Virus record (IMG/VR): IMGVR_UViG_3300025000_000004
Direction: 5' to 3' (one strand)
Length of the DNA: 64,000 nt
Origin: an uncultured virus (IMG/VR IMGVR_UViG_3300025000_000004)
Lineage: Duplodnaviria; Heunggongvirae; Uroviricota; Caudoviricetes; Crassvirales
In this document: positions 2,128 through 64,000 of the stretch, piece by piece
How the letters are laid out: every line of letters begins with the position of its first letter
Numbering within the stretch: the first letter of the stretch is position 1
Position numbers and translations under genes: made by a program
The notes under the pieces: model-generated
Seen by the model: the letters and a program-made list of their open reading frames with translations, nothing else
Told to the model about the DNA's origin: nothing
Databases searched by the model: none

Positions 2128-3588
2128 ATGAGAATTTCACCTTTTCAACTTTATGAATCAGAGGACATAACAGGTCTGGTAACTAAGTCTCACTTAGGTT
2201 ACAGGTTTGGTATTGAACCTCAACAAGCGTCTAAAGTTGCTACTATGATTCATCAGGCGAATCTTGGTGCAACTGTCAACGCATATCTTAATCAATTTCC
2301 TACAGTAACATTCCAGACTGATGATGATTTCACATGGGATATTACAACTAATGGAAAGAAAAACATTCCTCTTGCAAGAGCAGAGGTAACTCTTGGTACA
2401 GCACTTACTGCAGCAGATAAGGCTGGACATAACTACTCAGAATTCTATCTGTATTTCTGGGAAGCTTACTTCACAGACGTTAACCTTATCGTAGGTGAAC
2501 GTAATGAAGTGTATCCTATTCAGGTACTTGAAGATCCTGTAAACGTTGGTGGTCTGTGGAGATACAGAGTACGCCTGCTTACAGGTAACCCGAACCTCTT
2601 CGTTCCGTTTGAAGAACTGGCTGCTGGAAAACGTTTCAGCAAGGACTTCTCACCAGTTGAGAAAGAACTGTCAGTTAAAGGTGGTGGTGTACATTACACG
2701 TTCCCTTACAAAATGATGAATGCATTTACGATGATTCGTATGCAGGATACCATTCCGGGGAATATGATTGAAAGACCTGTTAAATTCTCTTGGATTGATC
2801 CTCAGAGCAAGAAACTCATGACAACATGGATGGACTACCGTTCATATGAGCTTGAAATGCAGTATCAGGACGAGATCAACCACATGCTCGTATACGCTAC
2901 ATCAAATAAAACTGATGATGGTAAATATGTACAGCGTGGTAAATCAGGTAGAGTGATCCAGATGGGTGCTGGTATTAAGCAACAGATGGAAGCTGCAAAC
3001 TATAACACTTATAACGTATTCGATATCAAGAAATTCACTGAAATGCTTCTTGACATGACAGTAGGTAAAGTCGTTATGGGACAACGTGAAGTAACAGTTC
3101 TTACGGGTGAATGGGGAATGTATCAATTCCATGAGGCTCTTGAAAGCTACTCAACCCTTTACACTCCTGCACGTGACACCTTCAGAATCTACAATAAAGG
3201 TAACACTATGGGATTCAGGGGTCAATTCCTTGAGTATATCGGACCTAACGGTATCAAGGTTAACATCGTTCATGATGCTCTGAAAGATGATTTCGCACGT
3301 AACAAAATTTATTATCCCGGAAAACAGGGTCTTGCTGAATCTTATGTATATGACATTCTGAACATGGGTACTTCTGATGGAAGACCTAACGTACAGAAAG
3401 TACAACTTGCTAAGTTCGGTGACATTCGTGGTTACGAACCCGGTCTGCGTGATCCTTTCACAATTGGTCAGGTAAACAGAATCATGGCTAATCCTAAAGA
3501 TGCATGGACAGAGCACAGAGCCTACACAGGTGGAGCTATTGTTTATGATCCTACAAGGACAGCAACATATAAACCGATTATACTTTAA
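2128..3588 (+). CDS. Major capsid protein (crAss-like)
   Basis: 486 aa, codon bias typical of a highly expressed gene; size, position and motifs (GKSGRVIQMGAGIKQQ, FLEYIGPNGIKV, GLRDPF) resemble crAss-like MCPs. Confidence 0.85.
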   Translation: MRISPFQLYESEDITGLVTKSHLGYRFGIEPQQASKVATMIHQANLGATVNAYLNQFPTVTFQTDDDFTWDITTNGKKNIPLARAEVTLGTALTAADKAGHNYSEFYLYFWEAYFTDVNLIVGERNEVYPIQVLEDPVNVGGLWRYRVRLLTGNPNLFVPFEELAAGKRFSKDFSPVEKELSVKGGGVHYTFPYKMMNAFTMIRMQDTIPGNMIERPVKFSWIDPQSKKLMTTWMDYRSYELEMQYQDEINHMLVYATSNKTDDGKYVQRGKSGRVIQMGAGIKQQMEAANYNTYNVFDIKKFTEMLLDMTVGKVVMGQREVTVLTGEWGMYQFHEALESYSTLYTPARDTFRIYNKGNTMGFRGQFLEYIGPNGIKVNIVHDALKDDFARNKIYYPGKQGLAESYVYDILNMGTSDGRPNVQKVQLAKFGDIRGYEPGLRDPFTIGQVNRIMANPKDAWTEHRAYTGGAIVYDPTRTATYKPIIL

Positions 3589-7816: not shown

Positions 7817-8305
7817 ATGAGTCATACTTTTGGTGCTAATTCGATGAAGCAACATGAAACCCTTCATAACGATCTACAGCTTATTCTTGATCATACGATC
7901 TTAAAATGTGCTGTAGATTTTTCGTTAATAGAGGGATACAGACCACCAGAAAAGCAGTTTGAGTATTTTAAAAAGGGAAGAAAACAACAGCCTGATGGAT
8001 CATGGGTTGTAGTTAACAAGAAAGATGTAATCACAAATATAGACGGATATAAAGTAAAAGGGAAACATAATTATAATCCGTCCGTTGCTGTTGATATAGC
8101 TGTCTATGTACCTAATAAACCAAAATTAGCTTATGATCTTTCTCATCTTGCTTATATTGCAGGATGTATGATAACGATTGCAAATCAGTTATATGAAGAA
8201 GGAAAGATAAAACATAGGCTTCGTTGGGGAGGTGATTGGGACAGAGATGGTGATCTTACCGATAATATTCTTTTTGATGGTCCACATTTTGAGATTATTT
8301 CTTAA
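7817..8305 (+). CDS. Endolysin, peptidase M15 family (L-Ala-D-Glu peptidase-like)
   Basis: EGYR, KHNYNPSVAVD, RWGGDW and DGPHFE zinc-peptidase motifs. Confidence 0.85.
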   Translation: MSHTFGANSMKQHETLHNDLQLILDHTILKCAVDFSLIEGYRPPEKQFEYFKKGRKQQPDGSWVVVNKKDVITNIDGYKVKGKHNYNPSVAVDIAVYVPNKPKLAYDLSHLAYIAGCMITIANQLYEEGKIKHRLRWGGDWDRDGDLTDNILFDGPHFEIIS

Positions 8306-52394: not shown

Positions 52395-52426
52395 CAAATG
52401 TAATATATTAGATTGGATAATCCAAA
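52395..52426 (-). promoter_or_regulatory. Bacteroidota-type promoter driving the Y-like RNA cluster
   Basis: Minus strand TTTG-N20-TACATTTG immediately after the TROVE stop codon. Confidence 0.75.
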
Positions 52427-52429
52427 CTA

Positions 52430-54073
52430 TTATATCACAATTTTTTCAATCTCCTCAACGATTGCTTTATAACCAGCTGTACCTGATGATATTACATCGA
52501 AGATTTTTTCACTCCATCCAGCAATCTGAGTTACGTTTAGATTCTTGTTGAAGACTGTAGTTCCGCTTGTCTGGTGAATATCGACAGAAACAACTTTGAT
52601 ACGAGGATAAAGCTTTCTGAATTCAGAAAACATTTTCTGGAAGCTACCTGAATGATCACCACTACTATGTAATCCATACCATCTGTTGTTCTCACCTATG
52701 ACCATATCAGAGAAAACTATGATGTTATCTACTGGTTTCTTGTCACGGATAAGTTCTCTGAAGAATGTGTAAACACCCTGCTCTGTTCCTCCACCGCATT
52801 CACGACCTTTCTGATACATACGTCTGGTTGTTTGAAGAATTCCTTCTTCTCTGTTAACAGTAAAAGGTAATAGTCTGTCTCCAAATAGTCCAACGTATAC
52901 ACTTGGTTGCTTTGAAAGTAACATTGCTGCAAACACATCTGCGATATCTACACTTGTAGTCTTAGATAAAGCTGATACTAAGCTGCTGCCACCACCATCA
53001 CCTCTCATTGAACCTGAGTGATCAATAAGGATTGCTGTTCTTCCTTCCAGTTCAGGAATATTTGCACAAGAGAGTTCGATTGCTTTTTCAATAGCTGGTA
53101 AAAGCTTTTTTTTGATCGCTTCAAGTTCAGTAGTATTTACCTCTCTTGTTTTGATCTCATCTTCAAATACGATAGAAGATTTATCAGCTTTAGCCGATGC
53201 TTTTAGCATCTCAATCTCATTGTATGCGGACAGGAATCTGAATGGAAGCAGTCTGGACTTCTGAATAGTCTCAGGATTAGTAAGCTGACGTATCGCTTCA
53301 TCAACACTGTCAGGTGCAGAGAGAACAATGTTTCTCAGGTTTCTTAACAGGTTAAAGATAGGCATACCTTTAACGTTATCAAGAACTGATTCGATTGCTT
53401 CTTTCTTAGCTTCCTGAACCTTCTCTTTCGATACAGTACCAGCTTTACTCATTTCTTTTTCAAGAATCTTTGAGCTGTATAGCTTATCAAGTCCCTTACC
53501 ATCTTTAGTCATTAACAGTTTGAACGCTTCAGCATTCTTCTGTGTTGCTTTAGGACGAAACAGGTTAACAAGATCAATCAGACTTATACTACGACCTGAC
53601 ATCTTATACTTATCAATAAGATAAGGATCAAGAGTCTCAAGTTTGGCTTTAAAGCCTTTTCTGATAGCGTTGGAAAATGCTTTCTGTTTCATTACGTTCT
53701 TGTAATAGGAAACAATTTCCGACATGTCATCAGGTCTTACGAGTACTTTCGTATAGAACCTCTTCGCCCATTCTTCTCCACCTATTCTTGGAGCAAGTTC
53801 TCCAGCCAGAAGATGAGAAACAGTTCTCATGTTAGCTTCGGTTCTTGCGTAGATTGCGGTTTTTGCAACGAACAAAGGATCACAGGCTAATGCAGCGTTC
53901 TTAATTCTTTCTACAATTGCCTTTTCAGACTCATAGTAAGACTTCTGAACGAATGTAGTTAGTACTGTTGATACAAGTTCTTCTTTTGGGTCAAGTTTAT
54001 ACGCTTTTTCACCCATAGCGTTTGTCTCAGTAGGAAGATGAGTTCCCACTTTCTTTTCATTGAACTTTGCCAT
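52430..54073 (-). CDS. rsr: Ro60/TROVE domain ribonucleoprotein with vWA domain
   Basis: N-terminal GEKAY..PKEEL, YARTEANMR, RPDDM, LLRNLRNI and SRLLPFRF TROVE motifs; MIDAS DHSGS; FSDM; IAGWSEKIF. Confidence 0.92.
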   Translation of the reverse strand: MAKFNEKKVGTHLPTETNAMGEKAYKLDPKEELVSTVLTTFVQKSYYESEKAIVERIKNAALACDPLFVAKTAIYARTEANMRTVSHLLAGELAPRIGGEEWAKRFYTKVLVRPDDMSEIVSYYKNVMKQKAFSNAIRKGFKAKLETLDPYLIDKYKMSGRSISLIDLVNLFRPKATQKNAEAFKLLMTKDGKGLDKLYSSKILEKEMSKAGTVSKEKVQEAKKEAIESVLDNVKGMPIFNLLRNLRNIVLSAPDSVDEAIRQLTNPETIQKSRLLPFRFLSAYNEIEMLKASAKADKSSIVFEDEIKTREVNTTELEAIKKKLLPAIEKAIELSCANIPELEGRTAILIDHSGSMRGDGGGSSLVSALSKTTSVDIADVFAAMLLSKQPSVYVGLFGDRLLPFTVNREEGILQTTRRMYQKGRECGGGTEQGVYTFFRELIRDKKPVDNIIVFSDMVIGENNRWYGLHSSGDHSGSFQKMFSEFRKLYPRIKVVSVDIHQTSGTTVFNKNLNVTQIAGWSEKIFDVISSGTAGYKAIVEEIEKIVI

Positions 54074-54116: not shown

Positions 54117-54716
54117 TCATCTGTTTCGTTTGTTAACTCGCATGTGATCCGCTTTAATCTTAGGAATGTGATTTATATAAACCACGTTTCTTAATTTTTC
54201 TTCCGATGTCAGTTTTTCACTCACACGTTCGTATTCAGGAGAATCCAACCACTCTTCATATTGCATACTCCCTCTCGTATTATTACATTTCTTACAGGAC
54301 GTAATCAGATTGTCATCTATTGATGGACCTCCTTCTTCCCACAGCACAATATGATCTACTGTAAGAGGAACATGGTCATTGCCACAATAACGACATTTGT
54401 ATCCATCACGCCTGAATACTGCCCAAGACACACTAAGATCTATCTGTCGTGTTGATTTACGAACAATAATCTTTTTATTTGAGTCTCCTGAGACTATTTC
54501 TGTTTCAAGAAGATCAGACTGTCTTACGATTTTATTCCACTCTTCAAGAGTAGGAGTTAAAATCTTCATCATTGTCGGTTCTTCCTGTGCTGGTAACATT
54601 ATCATAAAGTCCTCACTTGTATTACCATAGAGTACTCCTTTAATCTCTAATGAGTTACCTATTTTTAATAGATCAAAGTCTTCAAATTTCATTTTACTGT
54701 TCGATTTTAATTTCAC
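54117..54716 (-). CDS. HNH endonuclease
   Basis: VFRRDGYKCRYCG..LTVDHIV..GG..DNLITSCKKCNNTRG. Confidence 0.88.
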   Translation of the reverse strand: MKLKSNSKMKFEDFDLLKIGNSLEIKGVLYGNTSEDFMIMLPAQEEPTMMKILTPTLEEWNKIVRQSDLLETEIVSGDSNKKIIVRKSTRQIDLSVSWAVFRRDGYKCRYCGNDHVPLTVDHIVLWEEGGPSIDDNLITSCKKCNNTRGSMQYEEWLDSPEYERVSEKLTSEEKLRNVVYINHIPKIKADHMRVNKRNR

Positions 54717-55797
54717 CTTGGTTAATTACTACTTTACCTGTTTTGAGCAGAATATTAGTAGAATCACCTTCGATCAATCTTCCACTACGATAGAAGATAA
54801 CAAAATCACCCTCATATATTCTTGCACCTTGTTGCCAGTATCCATTTTGTTTTACCAGTACAGGATCAAAACCGACTGCCCAATAATCTGACATAGCTAT
54901 ACCCATATCAAATTCTGTAGGAGTACCCCATTGAAGCCTGAATCGGGGAGCAAAATTAATAAAATCCTTGAAATTAGGATTCATTACTTGTGAATGTGTA
55001 TCATATCCCATCTCTCGCCACTGCGTAAGAGTCTTCTGTACTCCTGCTACTATAAAGAGAGGTTCTCCTTTTTCACACCAAAATATATTATAATCACTTT
55101 CAAATCCTTGTAAACAAGCTGTATCCATAACATTTATGTTATAGATACGATTCTTGGTATAGAAGATGTTATTCTTGATCTTGACATACTTTGCATCTGC
55201 AACTGGATTATCATTCTTATACACATCAATTAATCCACGCCAAGTTCCAATACCCGGAGATACGTAAGTAGAATCTTCTGAGTAAAATGTATTATTGTAA
55301 ATTCTTACTCCATTCATTCCTTTTACAACTACTCCTACAGCAGGTGGACTTACTATTATATTATAAGCTACTACCCCTGTAGAATCAGTCATTCCATCAC
55401 TCTTACGAATAATTCCCATTGGAACATGATCAAGGTAATTATACATTATACGAGCATTTGCTTCGTATCCTGTAAAGATACCATGTGTTATAGTGTTCGC
55501 ATTCTGATCTCCTGTCCAGACAAACTTATTACCAGTAATTAAACTGTTAGGAAGAGTATTAACGTATTCTGGATAAATGTTAGTCTCTACTCCTGCCTGA
55601 AGAAGATATCCTCCTGTATTACATGCTTCTACATAGTTATTCTTGAACACAAATGTAGCAAGTTCTCCACGTGGAATACTAATGCCGTTTACGTTTGTAC
55701 AAAGAGTATCTATATATCTTTGACCTTCATAGGTTAAAGTAATTTGACCAAATAAAACAGAAGGGAACAAGAATAATAGTATCAGCAATTTTTTCAT
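54694..55797 (-). CDS. Secreted right-handed beta-helix protein
   Basis: MKKLLILLFLFPSVLFGQ signal peptide; IYNNTF, IKNNIF, SDYNIF repeats; TLTQWREMGYDTHS. Confidence 0.65.
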   Translation of the reverse strand: MKKLLILLFLFPSVLFGQITLTYEGQRYIDTLCTNVNGISIPRGELATFVFKNNYVEACNTGGYLLQAGVETNIYPEYVNTLPNSLITGNKFVWTGDQNANTITHGIFTGYEANARIMYNYLDHVPMGIIRKSDGMTDSTGVVAYNIIVSPPAVGVVVKGMNGVRIYNNTFYSEDSTYVSPGIGTWRGLIDVYKNDNPVADAKYVKIKNNIFYTKNRIYNINVMDTACLQGFESDYNIFWCEKGEPLFIVAGVQKTLTQWREMGYDTHSQVMNPNFKDFINFAPRFRLQWGTPTEFDMGIAMSDYWAVGFDPVLVKQNGYWQQGARIYEGDFVIFYRSGRLIEGDSTNILLKTGKVVINQGEIKIEQ

Positions 55798-56378
55798 TTT
55801 ACAATGTATGAATCATTATTACTTGCAAATATGAATGTACGACCTCCATATCCTGTTTTGGCATGACCCGGAGAAGTTAGTATTGATAGAACTTTTTCAT
55901 CATATTGTCCTATCGGGCGTTGATCTTCTGGAATTCCTGCTGCTTCCCAATCAAAATTAGTATCAAAATATTGTTCTTGTTCAGCTAACATTCTATCTGC
56001 TGCATCATACATACTGTTTATCTTCAGCCAATTATCAGTAAGAAGATTACCTGTCGGAGTAATTGTAGGAGGTTGATTGTCTTTTAATGTAACTAAAAAA
56101 CTTACTTCAGTAAAAAGATCAAAGACATCAGTTGCTCTGATTGTAACAATTACTTCAGGATTTGCGATAGTTAATACAGTTCCTATTGCAGGAGTTTGTG
56201 TGATAGATTTTATACTGCAATTATCTTCCACTATGACATACTCATCTGTAGTATAATCAGGAAGAACAGCTTCACAATTCTGATTCACAAAAAGATATTG
56301 TGGAGGAATTTGTGCTATTAAGCACGTGCAACTGCTTGCAAGCAGCATTACGATTGTTAAAATAAATAGTTTTCTCAT
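55794..56378 (-). CDS. Secreted protein with HYR/Ig-like domain
   Basis: Signal peptide; CEAVLPDY..DNCS..TQTPAIG..VTIRATD..DNQPPTIT. Confidence 0.6.
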   Translation of the reverse strand: MRKLFILTIVMLLASSCTCLIAQIPPQYLFVNQNCEAVLPDYTTDEYVIVEDNCSIKSITQTPAIGTVLTIANPEVIVTIRATDVFDLFTEVSFLVTLKDNQPPTITPTGNLLTDNWLKINSMYDAADRMLAEQEQYFDTNFDWEAAGIPEDQRPIGQYDEKVLSILTSPGHAKTGYGGRTFIFASNNDSYIVK

Positions 56379-56404
56379 AATTGAACAGATTTAATTTATT
56401 AAAT

Positions 56405-56478
56405 TGGTCGCCCCACCAAGACTCGAACTTGAACTCTGAGATCCAAAATCTCATATGCTACCATTACATAATAGGGCA
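56405..56478 (-). tRNA. trnQ: tRNA-Gln(TTG), encoded CCA
   Basis: Cloverleaf; anticodon loop TTTTGGA. Confidence 0.88.
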
Positions 56479-56479
56479 G

Positions 56480-56554
56480 TGCTCAAGGATGGATTTGAAC
56501 CACCGACTCCGAACTTATCAGATTCGTACTCTAACCAAGCTGAGTTACATGAGC
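56480..56554 (-). tRNA. trnI: tRNA-Ile(GAT)
   Basis: Cloverleaf; loop CTGATAA. Confidence 0.9.
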
Positions 56555-56565
56555 ATATTCAGACG

Positions 56566-56817
56566 TTATTCGATCTTCATTGTTTTAAGATCGAATCTTT
56601 TGTATCTTCTTTTTTCATATTCTTCAATCGGAACATTGAATACACTATATAATGCATAAAATGCAACGATAAAACCATGAATAAAGAAAATGACCCGTAA
56701 TAGTTTCCAATTTACTTGAGTTATATCTTCATTAAATATCAAAATTAAACCGAATAATCCAATTAATATTGAAGTTATGAAGATAAAGAACCAAAATAAC
56801 ATTTTTGTTGTTGTCAT
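56566..56817 (-). CDS. Small membrane protein
   Basis: Two TM segments. Confidence 0.5.
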   Translation of the reverse strand: MTTTKMLFWFFIFITSILIGLFGLILIFNEDITQVNWKLLRVIFFIHGFIVAFYALYSVFNVPIEEYEKRRYKRFDLKTMKIE

Positions 56818-56829
56818 TTCTCTTGTATT

Positions 56830-57081
56830 TTAGTGATTACAATCATTCATGTAAAAATCTATTTGACCATCGGCATGTTTTAAAAGATCCTTAAGTCTTT
56901 CGACTTCCTCTTTAAGTTCATTTCTCTGCTGAAGTAGCTCTGTACTTCTAAGAACAGTATAGGCTTCCATAGCATCAAGTGCAACACCAATAGATACTAA
57001 ATGTAAAGGGCAAATTATCTGGCTCATGCTCTTATGCCTTTGAAGTAATTCCTCTGCCTGTTTTCTTTCTTCTGTTGTCAT
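56830..57081 (-). CDS. Hypothetical coiled-coil protein
   Basis: 83 aa ORF. Confidence 0.5.
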   Translation of the reverse strand: MTTEERKQAEELLQRHKSMSQIICPLHLVSIGVALDAMEAYTVLRSTELLQQRNELKEEVERLKDLLKHADGQIDFYMNDCNH

Positions 57082-57191
57082 TTTAACATCCGTTTTTTAT
57101 TGCAAGTATAGCAAACACTACTATTATAGCTATTACACAACCTATAACTACATTTGCTTGGAATTGTCCGTTATCAATATACTTTATCTCT

Positions 57192-57407
57192 TTAACGTTT
57201 TGAATTATACACTTTATTATTTTTCTCACGCCATTGATTATCCCACATATCACGATATGTATTACATCCGCAAGATTGATTGCTTTTTGGCATTATCATA
57301 TTCTTACCTTGTGGATAACGGGAATAATAAGGTTGATATGCATTCTTACTACAGCTTGAAGCTACCAGTAAAAAAAGAACGAAGAGAATAGTAATCGTTT
57401 TCTTCAT
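57192..57407 (-). CDS. Small lipoprotein
   Basis: MKKTITILFVLFLLVASSC lipobox-like signal. Confidence 0.55.
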   Translation of the reverse strand: MKKTITILFVLFLLVASSCSKNAYQPYYSRYPQGKNMIMPKSNQSCGCNTYRDMWDNQWREKNNKVYNSKR

Positions 57408-57438
57408 AGTATTGATTTTAATTATAACTTTATTATAG

Positions 57439-57511
57439 CGGAACGTGAGAGACTCGAACTCTAACCACCTGCGTGACAGGCAGGGATACTAACCATTATA
57501 CGACACGCTCC
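57439..57511 (-). tRNA. trnD: tRNA-Asp(GTC)
   Basis: Cloverleaf; CCTGC CTGTCAC GCAGG. Confidence 0.88.
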
Positions 57512-57515
57512 ATTG

Positions 57516-57588
57516 CACACTGGGAACGGCTCGAACATTCGACCTTCTGTTTTGGAGACAGACATTCTACCAACTGAACTACCAGTGC
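57516..57588 (-). tRNA. trnW: tRNA-Trp(CCA)
   Basis: Cloverleaf; TCTGT CTCCAAA ACAGA. Confidence 0.9.
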
Positions 57589-57593
57589 GTTAG

Positions 57594-57667
57594 TTGACCC
57601 TACCGGGAATGATCCGATGATCCCCTGATTATGAGTCAGGTGCTTTAACCGTCTAAGCTAAGGGTCA
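57594..57667 (-). tRNA. tRNA(CAT), probably Ile2 (lysidine) rather than Met
   Basis: CCTGA CTCATAA TCAGG; atypical T-loop ATCATTC; the operon leader has two ATA codons (inference). Confidence 0.75.
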
Positions 57668-57671
57668 ATAG

Positions 57672-57743
57672 CGGACACAGAAGGAGTCGAACCTACGACC
57701 AATTGGTTAACAGCCAACTGCTCTACCTCTGAGCTATGTGTCC
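57672..57743 (-). tRNA. trnN: tRNA-Asn(GTT)
   Basis: Cloverleaf; loop CTGTTAA. Confidence 0.9.
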
Positions 57744-57749
57744 TTTATA

Positions 57750-57968
57750 TTATCTATCAAGCAATCCAACTATTATCTGAGCAAAAATTATTATTAGTAA
57801 CATCAACAACATAAGTCCTATTGCTAACCCAAGAGGTAACCAAATAGGAGAAAATACCCACCACCAAGAAATATCAATTACATGTGTAAGTTTAAGAACT
57901 ATTAACACTATTGTAACCAATGTCATTGATGGACCAAAATTAATGTTTACTGCTTCTTTGTTGCTCAT
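57750..57968 (-). CDS. Small membrane protein
   Basis: LIVLKLTHVIDISWWWVFSPIW; two TM segments. Confidence 0.6.
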   Translation of the reverse strand: MSNKEAVNINFGPSMTLVTIVLIVLKLTHVIDISWWWVFSPIWLPLGLAIGLMLLMLLIIIFAQIIVGLLDR

Positions 57969-58275
57969 TGTTCTGAGGTTTTAAATGGTCATCACTATAT
58001 GCTCCTAACCATTTCTCTATTCTCATTGATAATTTTACTCCTGAGAGTGAACCTGCAACCGTTCCTAATACATAAGGAACAAATAGCATCCAGTTCATAT
58101 CAGATAGAACGAGTTCACGAAAGGTTAAGAACCAAATTGTATTCGAGAACGTTGCAGCGATAAGATGATATGTCATGTTATTTCTGTTTCTGCTTCTCGA
58201 TACTATACTAAAACTTACATTCTGTATATATGCAAGTATAAGAATTTTTATTGAGGAATAGATCATGTTATACAA
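57940..58275 (-). CDS. Small membrane protein
   Basis: Three hydrophobic segments; YVLGTVAGSLSG. Confidence 0.55.
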   Translation of the reverse strand: MYNMIYSSIKILILAYIQNVSFSIVSRSRNRNNMTYHLIAATFSNTIWFLTFRELVLSDMNWMLFVPYVLGTVAGSLSGVKLSMRIEKWLGAYSDDHLKPQNNEQQRSSKH

Positions 58276-58505
58276 ATTGCGTTAACATCTGCTTTATCTA
58301 TCTCCCCGTCTCCCAACATATTAATGGTGACGATAACATCATCGTTTCTGTCAGAAGATTCAATCTTACAAAGAGTTGGTTCATAATGAACCTTCTTGTA
58401 ATCATTTCCCTCGTCATCAGTTGAAAAGACTACTTCCATATCTTCACGATTAGAAATATCTTTCGTATGATGTTCGATTGCTTTTAAAAATTGTCCTAAA
58501 TTCAT
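58263..58505 (-). CDS. Hypothetical protein (start revised; the track start lies upstream, across the tRNA)
   Basis: MNLGQFL..STDDEGN..NAICIT; ATG at 58505, downstream of tRNA-Ala. Confidence 0.55.
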   Translation of the reverse strand: MNLGQFLKAIEHHTKDISNREDMEVVFSTDDEGNDYKKVHYEPTLCKIESSDRNDDVIVTINMLGDGEIDKADVNAICIT

Positions 58506-58528
58506 AATGTCAAAGAGCATTAAATTAG

Positions 58529-58601
58529 TGGAGTTGAAGGGATTTGAACCCTTATCCTTCACAGTGCAAGTGTGACGCTCAACCAGTTGAGCTACAACCC
58601 C
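58529..58601 (-). tRNA. trnA: tRNA-Ala(TGC)
   Basis: Cloverleaf; G3:U70 pair; loop CTTGCAC. Confidence 0.9.
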
Positions 58602-58605
58602 ATAA

Positions 58606-58717
58606 AGTATAGAAGACAGAATATCGTTCCCCATCAGTGCAAAGCCTCAGCAATTGACCACTTGCATAATGAAATCCTTCGAGGCGATGGACGAATTGCT
58701 CACTCATCTTCTATACT
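58606..58717 (-). ncRNA. Unidentified structured (pseudoknot-capable) RNA between tRNA-Val and tRNA-Ala
   Basis: 11-bp terminal stem AGTATAGAAGA/TCTTCTATACT; CCATC/GATGG; crossing GCCTC/GAGGC and TGCAA/TTGCA. Confidence 0.55.
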
Positions 58718-58794
58718 GGTGCTTCTTGCAGGATTTGAACCTACGACTTCCACCTTGTAAGGGTGGCACTTTCAACCAACTGAGTTAAAGAAGC
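58717..58794 (-). tRNA. trnV: tRNA-Val(TAC), encoded CCA
   Basis: Cloverleaf; CCACC CTTACAA GGTGG. Confidence 0.9.
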
Positions 58795-58826
58795 AATAAA
58801 AAACCCCTGACTTTTGATCAGGGGTT
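58795..58826 (-). terminator. Attenuator terminator of tRNA operon 2
   Basis: AACCCCTGA-TCAAAAG-TCAGGGGTT then TTTTATT, immediately before tRNA-Val. Confidence 0.8.
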
Positions 58827-58851
58827 CTATTTGACTAACATTCTTGTTCAG

Positions 58852-58926
58852 TTATAAATATAGAAATCCCCTGCCAGATCTTTGATCAGCTACTTGATTC
58901 CAAATATTTATGACTACTATGAGCAT
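58852..58926 (-). CDS. Leader peptide 2, MLIVVINIWNQVADQRSGRGFLYL (not in ORF track)
   Basis: ATG 58926 to TAA 58852, between promoter and terminator; its 3' end pairs with the terminator 5' arm. Confidence 0.7.
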   Translation of the reverse strand: MLIVVINIWNQVADQRSGRGFLYL

Positions 58927-58948
58927 TTCAATTCAATTGTTTAAGACG

Positions 58949-58980
58949 CAAATATATGTAATAGATATTTAATCTCCAAA
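58949..58980 (-). promoter_or_regulatory. Bacteroidota-type promoter of tRNA operon 2
   Basis: TTTG-N20-TATATTTG. Confidence 0.8.
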
Positions 58981-59712
58981 TTATCTGCGACCTTTTTCTT
59001 CAGGATAAAGATTTTTTACTGTATCAGACTGCCAATATTTTTTTGTGTAAACATCCATAAGAGTTAATTTACCTTCCCATCCTGCACCCTGATCAAGATT
59101 CCAGACATTGGAAACGTGAACTGGTTTAAGACTCTTATCTGCATAAGATGTAGTTGTATGACCAATAAATACTTCTTTATAACATTCTACTGTATTCTTG
59201 GCTTCATCAGGATGAGTTATATTGAAACTATGATGCATTGATGCTACAGTATACAAATGTCTATCCCACATTAAATCTCCCGGTAATTGTTCACTAATTG
59301 GATATTTCCAAGCAAATCCTCCATGTACAAACAGCATCCCATCAAATTCGTAATAGAAAACAGCTTTAGACAAGAATTTCTCGTGACGTTTAGCTATCTT
59401 ATTTCCTTCCTTTTTAAAGTGTCTGAGATATGCATCAATCGTAGCCTGACCTCCCTGGAGTGTCCATATAGCAGGGACATTACCAAACATAAACCACTGG
59501 TATAACCAATTGTCGTGATTACCCATAATATAGGTAAGATTCTTTATTTTAAGGAGTTCCTCAAAACATTCAGGAACTTCACTCCATCCATCGGCTACAT
59601 CACCAAGGCATATCAGAGTATCTTCTTTATAGTTAAAACTCGATAACTCAAGAACCTGCTTTAATGCTCTGTATGCACCATGTATGTCTCCTATTGCAAA
59701 TACTCTTTTCAT
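58981..59712 (-). CDS. Calcineurin-like metallophosphoesterase (lambda NinI/PrpA-like)
   Basis: GDIHG, LGDVADG, GNHD, FVHGG, GHT and LDQG motifs. Confidence 0.9.
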   Translation of the reverse strand: MKRVFAIGDIHGAYRALKQVLELSSFNYKEDTLICLGDVADGWSEVPECFEELLKIKNLTYIMGNHDNWLYQWFMFGNVPAIWTLQGGQATIDAYLRHFKKEGNKIAKRHEKFLSKAVFYYEFDGMLFVHGGFAWKYPISEQLPGDLMWDRHLYTVASMHHSFNITHPDEAKNTVECYKEVFIGHTTTSYADKSLKPVHVSNVWNLDQGAGWEGKLTLMDVYTKKYWQSDTVKNLYPEEKGRR

Positions 59713-59713
59713 A

Positions 59714-60193
59714 TTATGATAACATTAGTTCAATGTAATTAAATTTATCTCCAAGTGCTTCAGTAATATTAATCTCATTACCTTCAAATCCTCTGAGTTG
59801 ATTATTATACAATAGTATATATTTTGGTACTTTTAATTCTTTTTTTACAAATTTCTTACCTTTCTCGGTAATCTTCCAAAATCCACTTGTTCTGGTTTTT
59901 GTATCATTAGAGTCTTTTTCAAGTTCGTCTATCATTCCCCAATACTTAAGTTTTGATAACTCACTTCCACCAATACCAAAATCTATACCGAGTAAATCAT
60001 TGTAAATGTGAAAATATTCAACATCTGGATTTGATTTACTTTTTCTGTATAAAAGAATTAGAGTTCGTGCCATTGAAGTGTTCAATTTTCGTTTATACAA
60101 TTTAACAAATTGATTACAACAAGGACAAACAACACCTTTTTTATAATTTTCTCTTAAAAATTGTTTTGCTTCTCTTAATGTTTCCATATACAC
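59714..60193 (-). CDS. Hypothetical protein, possible winged-helix DNA binding
   Basis: CPCC; KLKYWGMI..SGFWKITEKG. Confidence 0.55.
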   Translation of the reverse strand: MYMETLREAKQFLRENYKKGVVCPCCNQFVKLYKRKLNTSMARTLILLYRKSKSNPDVEYFHIYNDLLGIDFGIGGSELSKLKYWGMIDELEKDSNDTKTRTSGFWKITEKGKKFVKKELKVPKYILLYNNQLRGFEGNEINITEALGDKFNYIELMLS

Positions 60194-60201
60194 ATTTTTA
60201 G

Positions 60202-60286
60202 CGGAGAATACAGGATTTGAACCTGTACACCGTTTCCGATGGATAGATTAGCAATCTACTGCGATACCAGATTACGCCAATTCTCC
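60202..60286 (-). tRNA. trnS: tRNA-Ser(GCT)
   Basis: Cloverleaf with long variable arm; loop TTGCTAA; G73. Confidence 0.9.
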
Positions 60287-60295
60287 AAACTCTTG

Positions 60296-60625
60296 TTACT
60301 TGCCAACATTAAAAAGTTCAATTAACTCTCTTTTACACAGAAACTGGAATAATGATGCAGCTCTGTTAAATGCTTTACGTTCCTGACCTTTCGGTACTTG
60401 CGTAAGAATAGTAATAACTCCTTTACTATTAAGGTGTTCATTTAATCTTGCTGATGCAAGCCTTCTTCCTTCTGCTTTCACAAAGTTATCATTTTTTGAA
60501 CATATTGCAATACTCATAGTTATTTGATTTGATGTGCAATATCCTGCAATAGTAAACCTGTATGGAAAACATTTATATGTTTCACCGTGAAAGAACAGAA
60601 TCTCTTTGTTTTCTGATTGTTCCAT
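60296..60625 (-). CDS. Hypothetical phage protein
   Basis: 109 aa; CSKNDNFVKAEGRRLA motif. Confidence 0.55.
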   Translation of the reverse strand: MEQSENKEILFFHGETYKCFPYRFTIAGYCTSNQITMSIAICSKNDNFVKAEGRRLASARLNEHLNSKGVITILTQVPKGQERKAFNRAASLFQFLCKRELIELFNVGK

Positions 60626-60647
60626 ATTTATAGTTATTAATTATTTG

Positions 60648-60721
60648 TACACCCGACAGGGATCGAACCTGTAACTTACGGTTTAGAAAACCGTTACTCT
60701 ATCCGATTGAGTTACGGATGC
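60648..60721 (-). tRNA. trnR: tRNA-Arg(TCT)
   Basis: Cloverleaf; ACGGT TTTCTAA ACCGT. Confidence 0.9.
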
Positions 60722-60726
60722 ATAAG

Positions 60727-60811
60727 CGGAGACAGTAGGACTCGAACCCACAGTACCTTGCAGTACTCCAGTTTTCAAGACTGGTGCAATAGCCAATTCT
60801 GCCATATCTCC
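60727..60811 (-). tRNA. trnS: tRNA-Ser(TGA)
   Basis: Cloverleaf with long variable arm; loop CTTGAAA. Confidence 0.9.
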
Positions 60812-60815
60812 ATAG

Positions 60816-60886
60816 ACAGTCTGATAGGACTCGAACCTACGTGAGTGATTTTGCAGACCACTACCTTGCCTCTCGGACACAGACTG
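60816..60886 (-). tRNA. trnC: tRNA-Cys(GCA)
   Basis: Cloverleaf; loop CTGCAAA; U73. Confidence 0.88.
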
Positions 60887-60890
60887 ATAG

Positions 60891-60975
60891 TGGGAAACGA
60901 GGGAATCGAACCCCCACCCTTACGGGACTACGGATTTACAGTCCGCTGCAACTAACCAATAGTTACCTCTTTCCC
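60891..60975 (-). tRNA. trnY: tRNA-Tyr(GTA)
   Basis: Cloverleaf with long variable arm; loop CTGTAAA. Confidence 0.9.
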
Positions 60976-60980
60976 ATTAG

Positions 60981-61052
60981 AGCGTAATGTCGGTCTCGAA
61001 CCGCTTCCTCTGCTTGGAAGGCAGACGCTTTACCAATTAAGCTACATCACGC
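60981..61052 (-). tRNA. trnG: tRNA-Gly(TCC), atypical acceptor/T-stem geometry
   Basis: TCTGC CTTCCAA GCAGA; 8-bp acceptor and shortened T-stem. Confidence 0.8.
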
Positions 61053-61056
61053 ATAA

Positions 61057-61232
61057 AAGTACATTACCATCTCCAGTTTTTATTTATGGTTTGTTCCCCA
61101 TAACCTGTTTCTGTGCACAGAAGAGCAGGAACTTGAACAGGACACTACAGACAAATAGGGTAGCTATCTCCCGAAGCCGTAGTCTGTTTCAACACAACCT
61201 TTCGGAAACGTGTGCTCTGTAGTAATGTACTT
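61057..61232 (-). ncRNA. Unidentified multibranch structured RNA within tRNA operon 1
   Basis: 11-bp terminal stem AAGTACATTAC/GTAATGTACTT enclosing several hairpins. Confidence 0.55.
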
Positions 61233-61234
61233 AG

Positions 61235-61307
61235 TGGAATAAACTGGATTTGAACCAATTTCCCCGGATTTTCAGTCCGGTGCATAGACCATCTCTGCCA
61301 TTATTCC
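61235..61307 (-). tRNA. trnF: tRNA-Phe(GAA)
   Basis: CCGGA CTGAAAA TCCGG. Confidence 0.88.
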
Positions 61308-61313
61308 ATTGAA

Positions 61314-61440
61314 AAGAGAGAGGATTTTATAGCGGTAGACTAATAAACTTATTATCAAACAACTAATCTTCCCATCCCTTAGGTTTGAACCACAGGGGGG
61401 TCTTGTTAATTATTTATTTTTTCAGTTTTACCTCTCTCTT
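61314..61440 (-). ncRNA. Unidentified rod-like RNA within tRNA operon 1
   Basis: AAGAGAGAGG/CCTCTCTCTT terminal stem, AAATAATTAA/TTAGTTGTTT inner stem, apical GGTTCAAACC. Confidence 0.5.
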
Positions 61441-61442
61441 AG

Positions 61443-61515
61443 TACACATAGAAGGAGTCGAACCCTCAACCTATTGATCCGTAGTCAATCGTTCTGTCCA
61501 TTGAACTATATGTGT
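61443..61515 (-). tRNA. trnR: tRNA-Arg(ACG)
   Basis: ATTGA CTACGGA TCAAT. Confidence 0.88.
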
Positions 61516-61518
61516 AAG

Positions 61519-61589
61519 TGACTCCGATTGGAATCGAACCAATGTCTTCGCCTTAAAAGGGCGAGGCTAAACCACTTTGCTACGAAGTC
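61519..61589 (-). tRNA. trnK: tRNA-Lys(TTT)
   Basis: TCGCC CTTTTAA GGCGA. Confidence 0.88.
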
Positions 61590-61990
61590 AATAAATAGTA
61601 AATATCTTTATCCTTTATGTTTGTATCATCTTGTTTAACAACAGGATTTGATATAGGATAAGAATTTGATGTTGATGCATAAGGATTTGAAGTTGATGCA
61701 TACTGAGGCATATAAGGATTTCGAGTATTACCTCTAATAGAACTGTATCTATAATCAAGTTCACGACATAGATGATGTATTTCTTCTGCATTACCTCTCT
61801 CCATTATATCTCTTATTCTTACTTCAGTCTCAGCATCTACTTTAATTCTATACAAAAATTCAGATAAACCCATTCTTTCTACTAACCCTCCATTTGATTG
61901 TTGATATACAACTTCATAAGAGCGTACTTGAAGATTTGGAGAATATTGAGGTTGATAAACTCTTCTAATTTCTACCATGTTAAAGAACAT
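61580..61990 (-). CDS. Hypothetical protein
   Basis: 136 aa with YASTSN repeat; stop codon falls inside the 5' end of tRNA-Lys. Confidence 0.5.
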   Translation of the reverse strand: MFFNMVEIRRVYQPQYSPNLQVRSYEVVYQQSNGGLVERMGLSEFLYRIKVDAETEVRIRDIMERGNAEEIHHLCRELDYRYSSIRGNTRNPYMPQYASTSNPYASTSNSYPISNPVVKQDDTNIKDKDIYYLLTS

Positions 61991-62004
61991 TTAAGTTAAA
62001 CTTG

Positions 62005-62077
62005 AGCTGAAGGCAGGAGTTGAACCCGCAACCATCGGTTTACAAAACCGCTGCTCTACCATTAAAGCTACTCCAGC
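62005..62077 (-). tRNA. trnT: tRNA-Thr(TGT)
   Basis: Cloverleaf; loop TTTGTAA. Confidence 0.9.
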
Positions 62078-62080
62078 AAT

Positions 62081-62111
62081 AAAAAAGGTCCTGCTATTTC
62101 TAACAGGACCT
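62081..62111 (-). terminator. Attenuator terminator of tRNA operon 1
   Basis: AGGTCCTGTTA-GAAA-TAGCAGGACCT then TTTTT, 3 nt before tRNA-Thr. Confidence 0.8.
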
Positions 62112-62165
62112 CTCACCCAACTAAATCTACTAATCACTACTAACAAAAAGCCACTTTCCAGAGAT

Positions 62166-62243
62166 TTAGGTGTATAAGTCCTGTACGACAAGGGTTTTAC
62201 CCTTGCCAGTTTTTGAGGAATATGTACAACTAAATCGTTTCAT
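62166..62243 (-). CDS. Leader peptide 1, MKRFSCTYSSKTGKGKTLVVQDLYT (not in ORF track)
   Basis: ATG 62243 to TAA 62166, 4 nt after the -7 box; its 3' end pairs with the terminator 5' arm. Confidence 0.7.
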   Translation of the reverse strand: MKRFSCTYSSKTGKGKTLVVQDLYT

Positions 62244-62247
62244 GTCG

Positions 62248-62278
62248 CAAATATAAAACATAGGTTTGAGAAATCAAA
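62248..62278 (-). promoter_or_regulatory. Bacteroidota-type promoter of tRNA operon 1
   Basis: TTTG-N19-TATATTTG. Confidence 0.8.
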
Positions 62279-63098
62279 ATAAAATTGAACCTTTTTTATC
62301 CCATGCGGTATATAAATGTCCGTCTGTTTGATAAATTAATGATCTTAGATCACTTTCCTTGCTTGCTTCCTGAATACAATAATCCATAACTGTTACTCCG
62401 ATTCCAAAGAGATCGTGTACTGAAGCTCCGAAAGGAAGAGTACGTACAAGTGTTTTATCATTGCACATTTCCTTCATATCCCTGAGAATATGTTGGTAGA
62501 ATACTTCTGCCTGAGCCTCAATCCATTCTTGTGTCCTTTGAGATTCGTTTGTATTGGTAACATTATCAGGAATGGTAGGAATTCTGAAGGTAAGTTGTGA
62601 AACATTATGATTAAGACAATATCCTATTATGTTCCGGAAAGTTCTTTCTCTCCAATCATGTCCTAAAACGATTGTCAGTCTTACCATAAGATTCTCTTGA
62701 AAAGCTTCGATCATCACATTTCCCAGCTTAAGAAGATCATTAGGTTTTGCGATTGATAGTGCAAGAACATTTAATCCTTTCTTATATAAGGTTGACAAAG
62801 CTGTTTTGCTTGTTATCAGAAATTGTCCATTTGTTTGCAGTTCAATTGGAATATTAGAATTGTTAAAGTACTCAATGATACGTAAAGTATCTGTTGGATT
62901 ATCCAATGGTTCACCTTTTCCTGTAATCAGGATGCTGTTTATTCCACTGAACATTGCTATCGTTTTTACCTTATTAAGATTTCTCCAGTAGAGTTCTTTA
63001 TTATAAGGTATTTCTCCTGTCATTTTACTGATACAGAAAGGACAGTTGTGTACGCAGTTAGGAGTGTTGATACTGATTGTTAAATTATTCGCTTTCAT
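62274..63098 (-). CDS. Radical SAM protein (start revised to MKANNL)
   Basis: CVHNCPFC (CxxxCxxC), ITGKGEP and ELQTNG motifs. Confidence 0.85.
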   Translation of the reverse strand: MKANNLTISINTPNCVHNCPFCISKMTGEIPYNKELYWRNLNKVKTIAMFSGINSILITGKGEPLDNPTDTLRIIEYFNNSNIPIELQTNGQFLITSKTALSTLYKKGLNVLALSIAKPNDLLKLGNVMIEAFQENLMVRLTIVLGHDWRERTFRNIIGYCLNHNVSQLTFRIPTIPDNVTNTNESQRTQEWIEAQAEVFYQHILRDMKEMCNDKTLVRTLPFGASVHDLFGIGVTVMDYCIQEASKESDLRSLIYQTDGHLYTAWDKKGSILF

Positions 63099-63618
63099 AA
63101 TATCTGTATAATGAATGAATATCTGGTCTTTTTTCTTTTGAACCGTCGTATATAACGAAGGTTGCTTTATAATTTGCACCGAGAGATTTAACATGTTCGA
63201 TTATTGTATCGACTGTTCTTCCAGAATAAAAAGAATCATCTATAATAATAACATCCTGACCATTGAAATCTTCTTTAAATGGTTCAAGTGAATCAATAGG
63301 TTCACCATTTCTTAATCCTCCATTGACACCATATACATAATCGTTATCAGCACCATAACATTCGATCCAGTTCTTAAAGAATACACCGAACTTACCTGTT
63401 ACTACATAAATATGTAGTTTATAATCTATGAACTTGTCGATTTTATCATACAAAGATTGAATAATATCCGGGTCTCTTACTGCAATATCAAGGTTCTCAA
63501 AAAATTCTTTTCCCCCTGTATGTAACTGAAGCATTTGTCTGACAACTTCGTTTATTTTAGGGCGAGTGATTTTATTACCAGAATCTTTGGTCTGGTCTGA
63601 AATGGTAAGATTCTTCAT
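63085..63618 (-). CDS. Type I phosphoribosyltransferase-like protein
   Basis: PRPP-binding motif VIIIDDSFYSGRT. Confidence 0.75.
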   Translation of the reverse strand: MKNLTISDQTKDSGNKITRPKINEVVRQMLQLHTGGKEFFENLDIAVRDPDIIQSLYDKIDKFIDYKLHIYVVTGKFGVFFKNWIECYGADNDYVYGVNGGLRNGEPIDSLEPFKEDFNGQDVIIIDDSFYSGRTVDTIIEHVKSLGANYKATFVIYDGSKEKRPDIHSLYRYYESE

Positions 63619-63643
63619 ATATATTTAATTTGGATTAATGTTG

Positions 63644-63725
63644 TGCTCTTAGTCAGACTCGAACTGACACACCTCTCGATATAAGTTCCTAAGACTTACG
63701 TGGCTACCAATTACACCATAAGAGC
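63644..63725 (-). tRNA. trnL: tRNA-Leu(TAG)
   Basis: Cloverleaf with variable arm; TAAGT CTTAGGA ACTTA. Confidence 0.9.
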
Positions 63726-63733
63726 AGTAAAAA

Positions 63734-63961
63734 TTATTTTCCGAATACTTCAGGATGAATAACTCCGTCAATATATCCGAAAAGCATTGCACGTTGCTGT
63801 TGATTTCCAACGAACTTATGTTTTACTTCTTCGCGAAGCTTGTTCCACTCAACAACGTTTGTTGCGGTTTTTAGCTTCTCTGTAAGCTCGATGTTCTTGT
63901 TAATAACTGCTTTCTGTTCTGCATCATTGAAAAACGATCTGTTGTTGTTTACTCTTTCCAT
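63734..63961 (-). CDS. Hypothetical protein
   Basis: 75 aa ORF between tRNA genes. Confidence 0.5.
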   Translation of the reverse strand: MERVNNNRSFFNDAEQKAVINKNIELTEKLKTATNVVEWNKLREEVKHKFVGNQQQRAMLFGYIDGVIHPEVFGK

Positions 63962-64000
63962 CTATATGTTTTTTAATTAATAAATCTGTGCTCTGAGAGA

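Follow-up and report, generated by a model that had tools for sequence, protein, structure and literature searches.

A probable multivalent leader-peptide attenuator ahead of tRNA genes in a crAss-like phage

Introduction

Transcription attenuation by a translated leader is classically described for the amino-acid operons trp, his, leu, pheA, thr and ilvGMEDA and for pheST. A short leader ORF lies just after the promoter. In the trp type the regulatory codons are in segment 1, the stop codon is in or near segment 2, the pairings 1:2, 2:3 and 3:4 exclude one another, and an intrinsic terminator lies ahead of the structural genes. The his and phe leaders contain long codon runs, and the thr and ilvGMEDA leaders sense several amino acids together. 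T-box riboswitches also make a terminator/antiterminator decision that depends on tRNA status, but their ligand is the uncharged tRNA itself, recognised by a specifier codon and the T-box bulge, and no translation is needed.

The tRNA genes themselves are textbook cases of growth-rate and stringent control, not of attenuation. The published roles of phage tRNAs are codon supply and escape from tRNA-cleaving defence. A full-text literature search, with most subscription journals outside its scope, found no description of leader-peptide attenuation of tRNA genes. Among crAss-like phages, cr111_1 (MT774387) has clustered tRNAs with small ORFs near a Ro60-like gene. For Flavobacterium, one study reports that amino-acid operons are likely preceded by leader-peptide attenuators (PMC9723704).

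Here we describe an element, unit 1, that precedes a tRNA block in a 64,000-nucleotide stretch of DNA from an uncultured virus (hereafter the window). Unit 1 resembles the amino-acid operon and pheST attenuators in its short leader ORF just after the promoter, the trp type in its four segments and in the terminator ahead of the genes, and the thr and ilvGMEDA leaders in that it would sense several amino acids together. In contrast with the amino-acid and pheST attenuators, it would gate tRNA genes rather than biosynthetic or synthetase genes, and the loop would be closed directly by the product tRNA and not via amino-acid synthesis. Its leader samples eight amino acids, mostly one to three times each, unlike leaders built on runs of a single codon. 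Unlike the known attenuators, such units are phage-borne, occur in two or three copies that partition the tRNA repertoire, and end 2-3 nt from the first tRNA. The window shares with cr111_1 a Crassvirales-type genome, clustered tRNAs with small ORFs and a Ro60-like gene nearby. The head of the cr111_1 array, however, consists of a promoter and a 13-codon sORF and has no hairpin with a T-run; that array covers nearly all amino acids, so no leader match can be scored.

Results

Genomic setting

The window looks crAss-like (Crassvirales-type). Its major head protein (2128-3588) matches phrog_11589 and shares 37% identity with capsid proteins from uncultured crAss-like phages, and a 4497-aa ORF ends the plus-strand structural block. 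The minus strand carries all 21 tRNA genes, within 51.7-63.7 kb. DNA of the window was found in 15 DNA sequencing runs from six studies of groundwater and soil, with no RNA run among them, and contigs from four of these runs show no variant within either of the two window units.

Unit 1 is located on the minus strand between a radical-SAM gene and tRNA-Thr (62077-62004); coordinates of the other features are given in Table 1. The block behind it reads tRNA-Thr(TGT), a 136-aa ORF, Lys(TTT), Arg(ACG), Phe(GAA), Gly(TCC), Tyr(GTA), Cys(GCA), Ser(TGA), Arg(TCT), a 109-aa ORF and Ser(GCT), that is, ten tRNAs for eight amino acids before the next promoter. Boxes of the TAnnTTTG type occur between terminator 1 and unit 2 only at 60488 and 59491, both inside ORFs. 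Within the block, between tRNA-Phe and tRNA-Gly (61078-61139, minus strand), there is a near-threshold match to the Rfam freshwater-1 RNA (68 bits against a gathering score of 72, E = 2e-14); this RNA has no match at E <= 0.01 in G002, the related phage described below.

Table 1. Features of units 1 and 2 in the window, and leaders of the three units of the related phage G002
Feature	Position	Strand	Details
Radical-SAM gene	62274-63194	minus	Pfam PF04055; gene upstream of unit 1
-33-like TTTG, unit 1	62275-62278	minus	by sequence; overlaps the radical-SAM stop codon; 19-nt spacer to -7 box
-7 box TATATTTG, unit 1	62248-62255	minus	Bacteroidota sigma-A type (TAnnTTTG)
Leader ORF 1, MKRFSCTYSSKTGKGKTLVVQDLYT	62166-62243	minus	25 codons; stop TAA 62168-62166; regulatory codons 2-17
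Segment 1, GAUUUAGUUGUA	62225-62236	minus	inside codons 3-6; 11 bp with segment 2 in the full-length MFE structure
Internal hairpin	62186-62208	minus	arms UGGCAAGGGU/ACCCUUGUCG; GGCAAGGGT-AAA-ACCCTTGTC at 62206-62186; seen in every fold
Segment 2 (antiterminator 5' strand), ACAGGACUU, CACCUAAAUC	62163-62184	minus	contains the stop codon 62168-62166
Segment 3 (antiterminator 3' strand), AGAUUUAG, UUGGGUG, AGGUCCUGU	62103-62127	minus	3' part is the terminator 5' arm; prefix folds
Intrinsic terminator, unit 1	62081-62114	minus	14-bp stem 62114-62083, GAAA loop, T6 ending at 62081
Putatively gated block behind unit 1	60201-62077	minus	tRNA genes and two ORFs
Promoter, unit 2	58949-58980	minus	TTTG 58980-58977, 20-nt spacer, TATATTTG 58956-58949
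Leader ORF 2, MLIVVINIWNQVADQRSGRGFLYL	58852-58926	minus	13 consecutive residues from Val/Ala/Asn/Met/Trp/Asp/Ile/Gln
Antiterminator 3' strand and terminator, unit 2	58798-58830	minus	12-bp stem 58828-58800, T6, ATT, tRNA-Val at 58794
Block behind unit 2	56405-58794	minus	tRNA-Val, Ala, Asn, Met(CAT), Trp, Asp, Ile, Gln; small ORFs between
G002 unit 0, leader MKVTTLHLLPEEPSKQRVLE			before Pro, Glu, His, Leu; 8-residue set run, set background 0.19
G002 unit 1, leader MLVRFRYTKYSSCKGTSSARWDFYI			ahead of the set of ten tRNAs that also follows window unit 1; 15-residue set run
G002 unit 2, leader MKTLVINIWNQIDVDQAIYNQGTMY			before Val...Gln; 14-residue set run

Promoter and translation start of unit 1

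According to PMC7366714, the Bacteroidota promoter consensus is TAnnTTTG with a TTTG near -33. By sequence, unit 1 has a promoter of this sigma-A class, with TATATTTG as the box and TTTG 19 nt upstream of it. The box TATATTTGCG is common to unit 1 and unit 2 (58956).

The ATG of the leader ORF at 62243 follows the -7 box after only 4 nt (CGAC). In Flavobacterium psychrophilum the sigma-A box spans -12 to -5 (PMC9723704), so that +1 of unit 1 would fall on the A of the ATG. An mRNA that starts there would belong to a rare class in Bacteroidota: the published figures are 5.5% leaderless mRNAs for F. psychrophilum and 3.7% 5' UTRs shorter than 10 nt for B. thetaiotaomicron (PMC9723704, PMC7366714). 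The distance from box to ATG is 18-131 nt in the four other units, namely unit 2 of the window and the three units of G002. The G002 orthologue of leader 1 has its ATG 24 nt after the box, and leaderlessness is therefore not conserved. The first-pass annotation had called the sORF of unit 1 probably leaderless; the 4-nt gap and the published box position agree with this for the window, but the property is absent from the orthologue.

The leader matches the downstream tRNAs

The short ORF that closely follows the -7 box of unit 1 has a biased composition. Residues 2-17 (KRFSCTYSSKTGKGKT) are without exception amino acids carried by the ten tRNAs behind the leader, {T,K,R,F,G,Y,C,S}. The set has a background frequency of 0.414 in the long ORFs of the window, and a run of 16 residues has P = 7e-7 per start. 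Among the 2345 ATGs of the window, counted on both strands, leader 1 has the longest N-terminal set run (the next best is 12), and it is the sole 16/16 among the 1109 ATGs with 16 open codons. The run contains no residue of the unit 2 set and, conversely, the run of leader 2 contains none of the unit 1 set.

At the codon level, under strict wobble rules, nine of the first 12 codons of leader 1 are cognate (P = 0.0029), and the misses are TCC, ACT and GGC. Two caveats raised from the sequence at the outset are correct: the Gly codons are GGC and GGT although the tRNA-Gly has the anticodon UCC, and there is no AGA codon for tRNA-Arg(TCT). Over the five units the regulatory codons are in every case enriched for the relevant amino acids, and the strict codon-level P values for the first 12 codons are 0.0029, 0.043, 0.00024, 0.00039 and 0.043. 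The strict codon-level matches are thus more modest than those at the amino-acid level.

Alternative RNA structures of unit 1

In the unconstrained fold of the full-length RNA, segment 1 (GAUUUAGUUGUA, 62236-62225) pairs with UACACCUAAAUC (62174-62163) in segment 2, and the internal hairpin and the terminator are both formed. The 1:2 pairing had not been annotated before and completes the classical trp-type layout of four segments: the regulatory codons overlap with segment 1, and segment 2 includes the stop codon. When only the transcript up to the terminator loop is folded, ACAGGACUU (62184-62176) pairs with AGGUCCUGU (62111-62103) over 9 bp and CACCUAA pairs with UUGGGUG over a further 7 bp; the terminator 5' arm is thereby taken up. 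The antiterminator thus shares a strand with the terminator, and this arrangement covaries with G002 (see below). The sequence GAUUUAGUUG is present twice, at 62236-62227 in segment 1 and at 62126-62117 in segment 3, each copy being complementary to segment 2. Either segment 1 or segment 3 can serve as the partner of segment 2, and segment 3 can pair with segment 2 or contribute to the terminator.

The terminator is followed by ATT and then by tRNA-Thr at 62077. It separates leader 1 from the tRNA genes, and as its T-run ends 3 nt before the first of them, tRNA-Thr would be made by read-through only. In the region 55000-64000 there are 11 terminator-like sites, against 3.7 +/- 1.7 in shuffled sequences; the two strongest directly precede tRNA-Thr and tRNA-Val, each terminator being followed by TTTTTTATT ahead of its tRNA. 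The 173-nt stretch of unit 1 folds at -53.6 kcal/mol (z = -3.85), and none of 200 shuffles was as good. The internal hairpin might possibly serve as a pause hairpin.

The effect of a ribosome was modelled as a footprint of 30 nt. When it was placed on codons 3-11, segment 2 paired with ten of the 14 nt of the terminator 5' arm. Placed on the stop codon instead, it masked segment 2 and left only weak pairing partners. The energy of the antiterminator duplex of unit 1 was matched by 45 of 1000 shuffles; for the five units, the best duplex between leader and terminator 5' arm was reached by 45, 30, 45, 2 and 16 of 1000 dinucleotide shuffles. Every scenario favours the terminator at equilibrium, and read-through must therefore depend on kinetic trapping. 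Classical attenuators are likewise understood as kinetic.

These data confirm every element that had been named for unit 1 from the sequence. The -7 box, the 25-codon ORF and the internal hairpin are all present on the minus strand, an antiterminator that sequesters the terminator 5' arm is seen in the prefix folds, and the terminator before tRNA-Thr has 14 pairs and a T-run. As for the two conformers, the alternative pairings exist in the prefix and footprint folds, and the terminator is favoured at equilibrium everywhere.

A search of 62081-62278 against 4227 Rfam families gave no match at E <= 1, T-box included, which speaks against a T-box riboswitch. Unlike a T-box, the phage element carries an ORF in which many different codons occur.

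A second unit in the window

A second unit of the same design is found at 58956-58795. Its box lies just past the stop codon of the upstream metallophosphatase gene, and 13 of 14 residues of its leader belong to {V,A,N,M,W,D,I,Q}, which makes it the unique top score among 1181 open ATG windows. The folds and the footprint results are like those of unit 1. The ATA codons of leader 2 require a lysidine tRNA; by sequence, the CAT-anticodon tRNA of this block is either tRNA-Met or lysidine-Ile, and in the latter case the ATA codons would be cognate. Two further boxes, 57942 and 56747, fall within the unit 2 block, and its counterpart in G002 has two as well (9301 and 11747). It is possible that these are internal promoters.

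The metallophosphatase is a calcineurin-like phosphoesterase (58981-59712, minus strand; PF00149) encoded between the two tRNA blocks, with a weak PHROG match to the phosphoesterase part of an RNA ligase family.

The design is conserved in a related phage

A search with the capsid protein retrieved 43 IMG/VR loci, of which three belong to complete genomes. One relative, G002, has a genome of 99,795 bp and a major capsid protein 90% identical to that of the window. It shows 24 tRNA matches in the same order as in the window, preceded by a Pro-Glu-His-Leu block, and it carries three units (Table 1). The design was therefore found in two genomes and five units, of which the orthologous ones are not independent.

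The set-matched runs of the G002 leaders (8, 15 and 14 residues) have P of about 2e-6 each. Strictly cognate codons make up seven of the first 12 in unit 0 (P = 0.00024). In unit 1 there are 11 consecutive strictly cognate codons, and these include AGA, which is missing in leader 1 of the window. The leader 1 peptides of the two phages have very different sequences drawn from the same amino-acid set, and proteins encoded within the arrays share 32% identity or are unrelated. As leader 1 and the array proteins have diverged and the set match has been kept, composition is conserved where sequence is not. Unit 1 of G002 also sits behind a different upstream gene.

The structures are conserved as well. 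The full-length MFE structure contains the 1:2 pairing and the terminator in all five units, and with a footprint on codons 3-11, again in all five, a segment located 4-20 nt upstream of the stop codon pairs with 9-11 nt of the terminator 5' arm. Between the unit 1 orthologues, the antiterminator 5' strand changes from ACAGGACU in the window to AUGGGACU in G002, the terminator 5' arm from AGGUCCUGU to AAGUCCCAU and the terminator 3' arm from CAGGACC to UGGGACU. Three interacting strands have thus changed together in a compensatory way and both helices are kept. In the ribosome-free prefix fold of G002 unit 1 the terminator arm pairs with segment 1 and not with segment 2, and in G002 unit 2 with a ribosome on the stop codon a second partner stays free.

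Taken together, the four-segment anatomy and the repetition of the design in unit 2 and in three G002 units, each with a set-matched leader, support the attenuator reading that was first put forward for unit 1.

At the window edge (63962-64000, minus strand) the first minus-strand bases, TCTCTCAGAGCACA..., resemble the 3' end of a cut-off tRNA. G002 has its Pro-Glu-His-Leu block with its own attenuator-like unit at the corresponding place, which suggests that a third unit may lie just outside the window. G002 also has a 34-codon Lys/Gly-rich sORF, MIMAKKSGNKSAPKDKGMGQGKKGSGKKGSCKRK, between a -7 box at 8164 and leader 2 (locus L164, 8194-8298).

Other relatives and other phage tRNA arrays

In two further relatives, G003 and G004, whose major capsid proteins are 86% and 90% identical, the tRNA array is missing and the few tRNAs present lie in a Ro/Y-RNA-like locus. 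In the nearest record, G001, the region of unit 1 is outside the coverage. The tRNA arrays of cr111_1 and of the metagenomic phages L047/L048, L063, L066 and L167 have no codon-matched leader with a terminator. Five other phages thus have arrays without such units, and the design is not universal.

Pattern searches were also made. Exact-pattern scans of viral_contigs with the internal hairpin and with the terminator gave 0 loci each. A pattern of promoter, gap, terminator and tail gave 12 loci, all of them unrelated chance matches, and an 18-mer from after tRNA-Thr gave seven matches in genome_contigs, all in unrelated bacteria. In viral_contigs, a 21-mer of tRNA-Val matched nothing but G002 and a single unrelated phage of 146 kb; genome_contigs yielded 0 loci. 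The pattern T6-ATT-GC-tRNA had at least 117 matches; among 80 loci, five have a tRNA at the junction, all of them single tRNAs. GenBank phages matched on tRNA sequence only.

The 146-kb IMG/VR phage (L167, 8609-8681) shares the 5' half of tRNA-Val, and its array has a tRNA with a CTA anticodon (amber suppressor type), which suggests TAG recoding in that phage.

The radical-SAM family (274-306 aa) has 420 relatives at E <= 0.001. Used as a single-protein anchor, the radical-SAM protein found no relative. An alignment of the family gave 26 loci in viral_contigs, at no more than 53% identity (no more than 42% over the full length) and none with this array, and at least 80 loci in metagenome_contigs, with no more than 47% identity among the matches listed. 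As proteins, relatives at 52-68% identity occur on contigs of 45-105 kb. Relatives adjoin tRNA arrays in several unrelated metagenomic phages (L047, L048, L063 and L066), and this adjacency hints at a tRNA-related function.

Finally, a Ro60/TROVE-like protein is encoded at 52430-54073 (minus strand) of the window and is 49% identical to proteins of the crAss-like phages cr111_1 and csAssE-Sib. Beside this gene (52402-51760, minus strand) there is a promoter, TACATTTG, at 52402, followed by several tRNA-like modules. Each module is preceded by TTACTTCG, and the series ends in tRNA-Met and tRNA-Arg. Modules flanked by TTACTTCG are also present in G003, G004 and csAssE-Sib. Judged by sequence, gene and modules together look like a phage Ro/Y-RNA (YrlA-like) locus. 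An HNH endonuclease gene (54117-54716, minus strand) lies near the Ro gene, and the phosphoesterase, the endonuclease and the Ro region may form an RNA maintenance module.

Discussion

We propose that unit 1 is a ribosome-mediated, trp-type transcription attenuator with a multivalent leader peptide that gates a phage tRNA operon, and we put the probability of this reading at roughly three in four. In the proposed mechanism the host RNA polymerase would start at the Bacteroidota-type promoter and a ribosome would translate the 25-codon leader. Codons 2-17 would sample the amino acids of the ten downstream tRNAs, the first ten codons being mostly exact cognate codons. Slow decoding at any such codon would hold the ribosome on segment 1, so that segment 2 could pair with the nascent segment 3; this pairing would sequester the terminator 5' arm, and the polymerase would continue into tRNA-Thr and the rest of the block. 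With fast decoding, the ribosome at the stop codon would cover segment 2 and the terminator would form. If the leader were not translated, the pairings 1:2 and 3:4 would form and transcription would stop too. The outcome would be a demand-driven and self-limiting synthesis of one tRNA subset, while unit 2 would serve a second, non-overlapping subset. The set-matched leader and the switchable terminator would thus probably let the phage make those tRNAs only when its ribosomes are short of them.

Any slow step in the translation of the leader would operate a four-segment layout. In the leader a given codon is present just one to three times, unlike in the his and phe leaders, and the strict codon matches are only moderately significant. 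These points would fit a switch that is coupled to translation but reports general capacity (ribosome availability, host shut-off or initiation rate), with the codon match as a by-product of phage codon preference. We consider this unlikely, as codon preference cannot explain non-overlapping leader sets that each coincide with their own tRNA block (units 1 and 2 of the window; units 0, 1 and 2 of G002). The transcript of about 165 nt from promoter to terminator could also function as a small RNA, in trans or as a decoy, its ORF being incidental or secondary and the tRNAs arising from leaky read-through. In favour of this, unit 1 combines a promoter of its own and a strong terminator with a highly structured RNA (z = -3.85), and attenuated leaders that act in trans are known from other bacteria. 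Such a role would, however, leave unexplained the set-matched leaders of five units, the position of the stop codon in segment 2 and the covariation of three strands. No Rfam family matches it at E <= 1, and we regard it as quite improbable as the sole explanation; a small-RNA role and attenuation are not mutually exclusive.

The reading of unit 1 as an ordinary terminator or insulator of the radical-SAM operon, with the sORF and the alternative pairings there by chance, is disfavoured and to us very improbable. Terminators do abut tRNAs elsewhere, as in the five single-tRNA cases among the 80 T6-ATT-GC loci, and the tRNA-Leu(TAG) of G002 is also preceded by a hairpin and a T-run. However, a consensus promoter lies between the radical-SAM stop codon and the sORF, and unit 1 is kept in G002 despite the different upstream gene. 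Additionally, the rank-1 composition statistics, the shuffle tests and the covariation speak against chance.

The interpretation of unit 1 as an attenuator can be extended to the phage as a whole. With somewhat less confidence, we still think it likely that the tRNA repertoire of the phage is divided among separately gated operons, each behind a codon-matched 'test peptide' and each transcribed only when ribosomes stall for those tRNAs. The units would then act as a sensor of host tRNA depletion or cleavage, as in host shut-off or under anticodon-nuclease defences, with a matched resupply, and no earlier case of tRNA genes under leader-peptide attenuation would be known.

The idea is readily testable by codon swaps in a reporter. 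Multivalent leaders would serve as compact sensors of specific tRNA pools in synthetic biology, and for annotation such units offer a rule by which functional sub-operons can be found in phage tRNA arrays. If the interpretation is true, a leader that samples the codons of its own downstream tRNAs forms a direct product-feedback loop on decoding capacity. It would show that phages regulate their tRNA genes and do not merely carry them, and it would tie phage tRNAs to the sensing of host tRNA damage in the conflict between phage and host.
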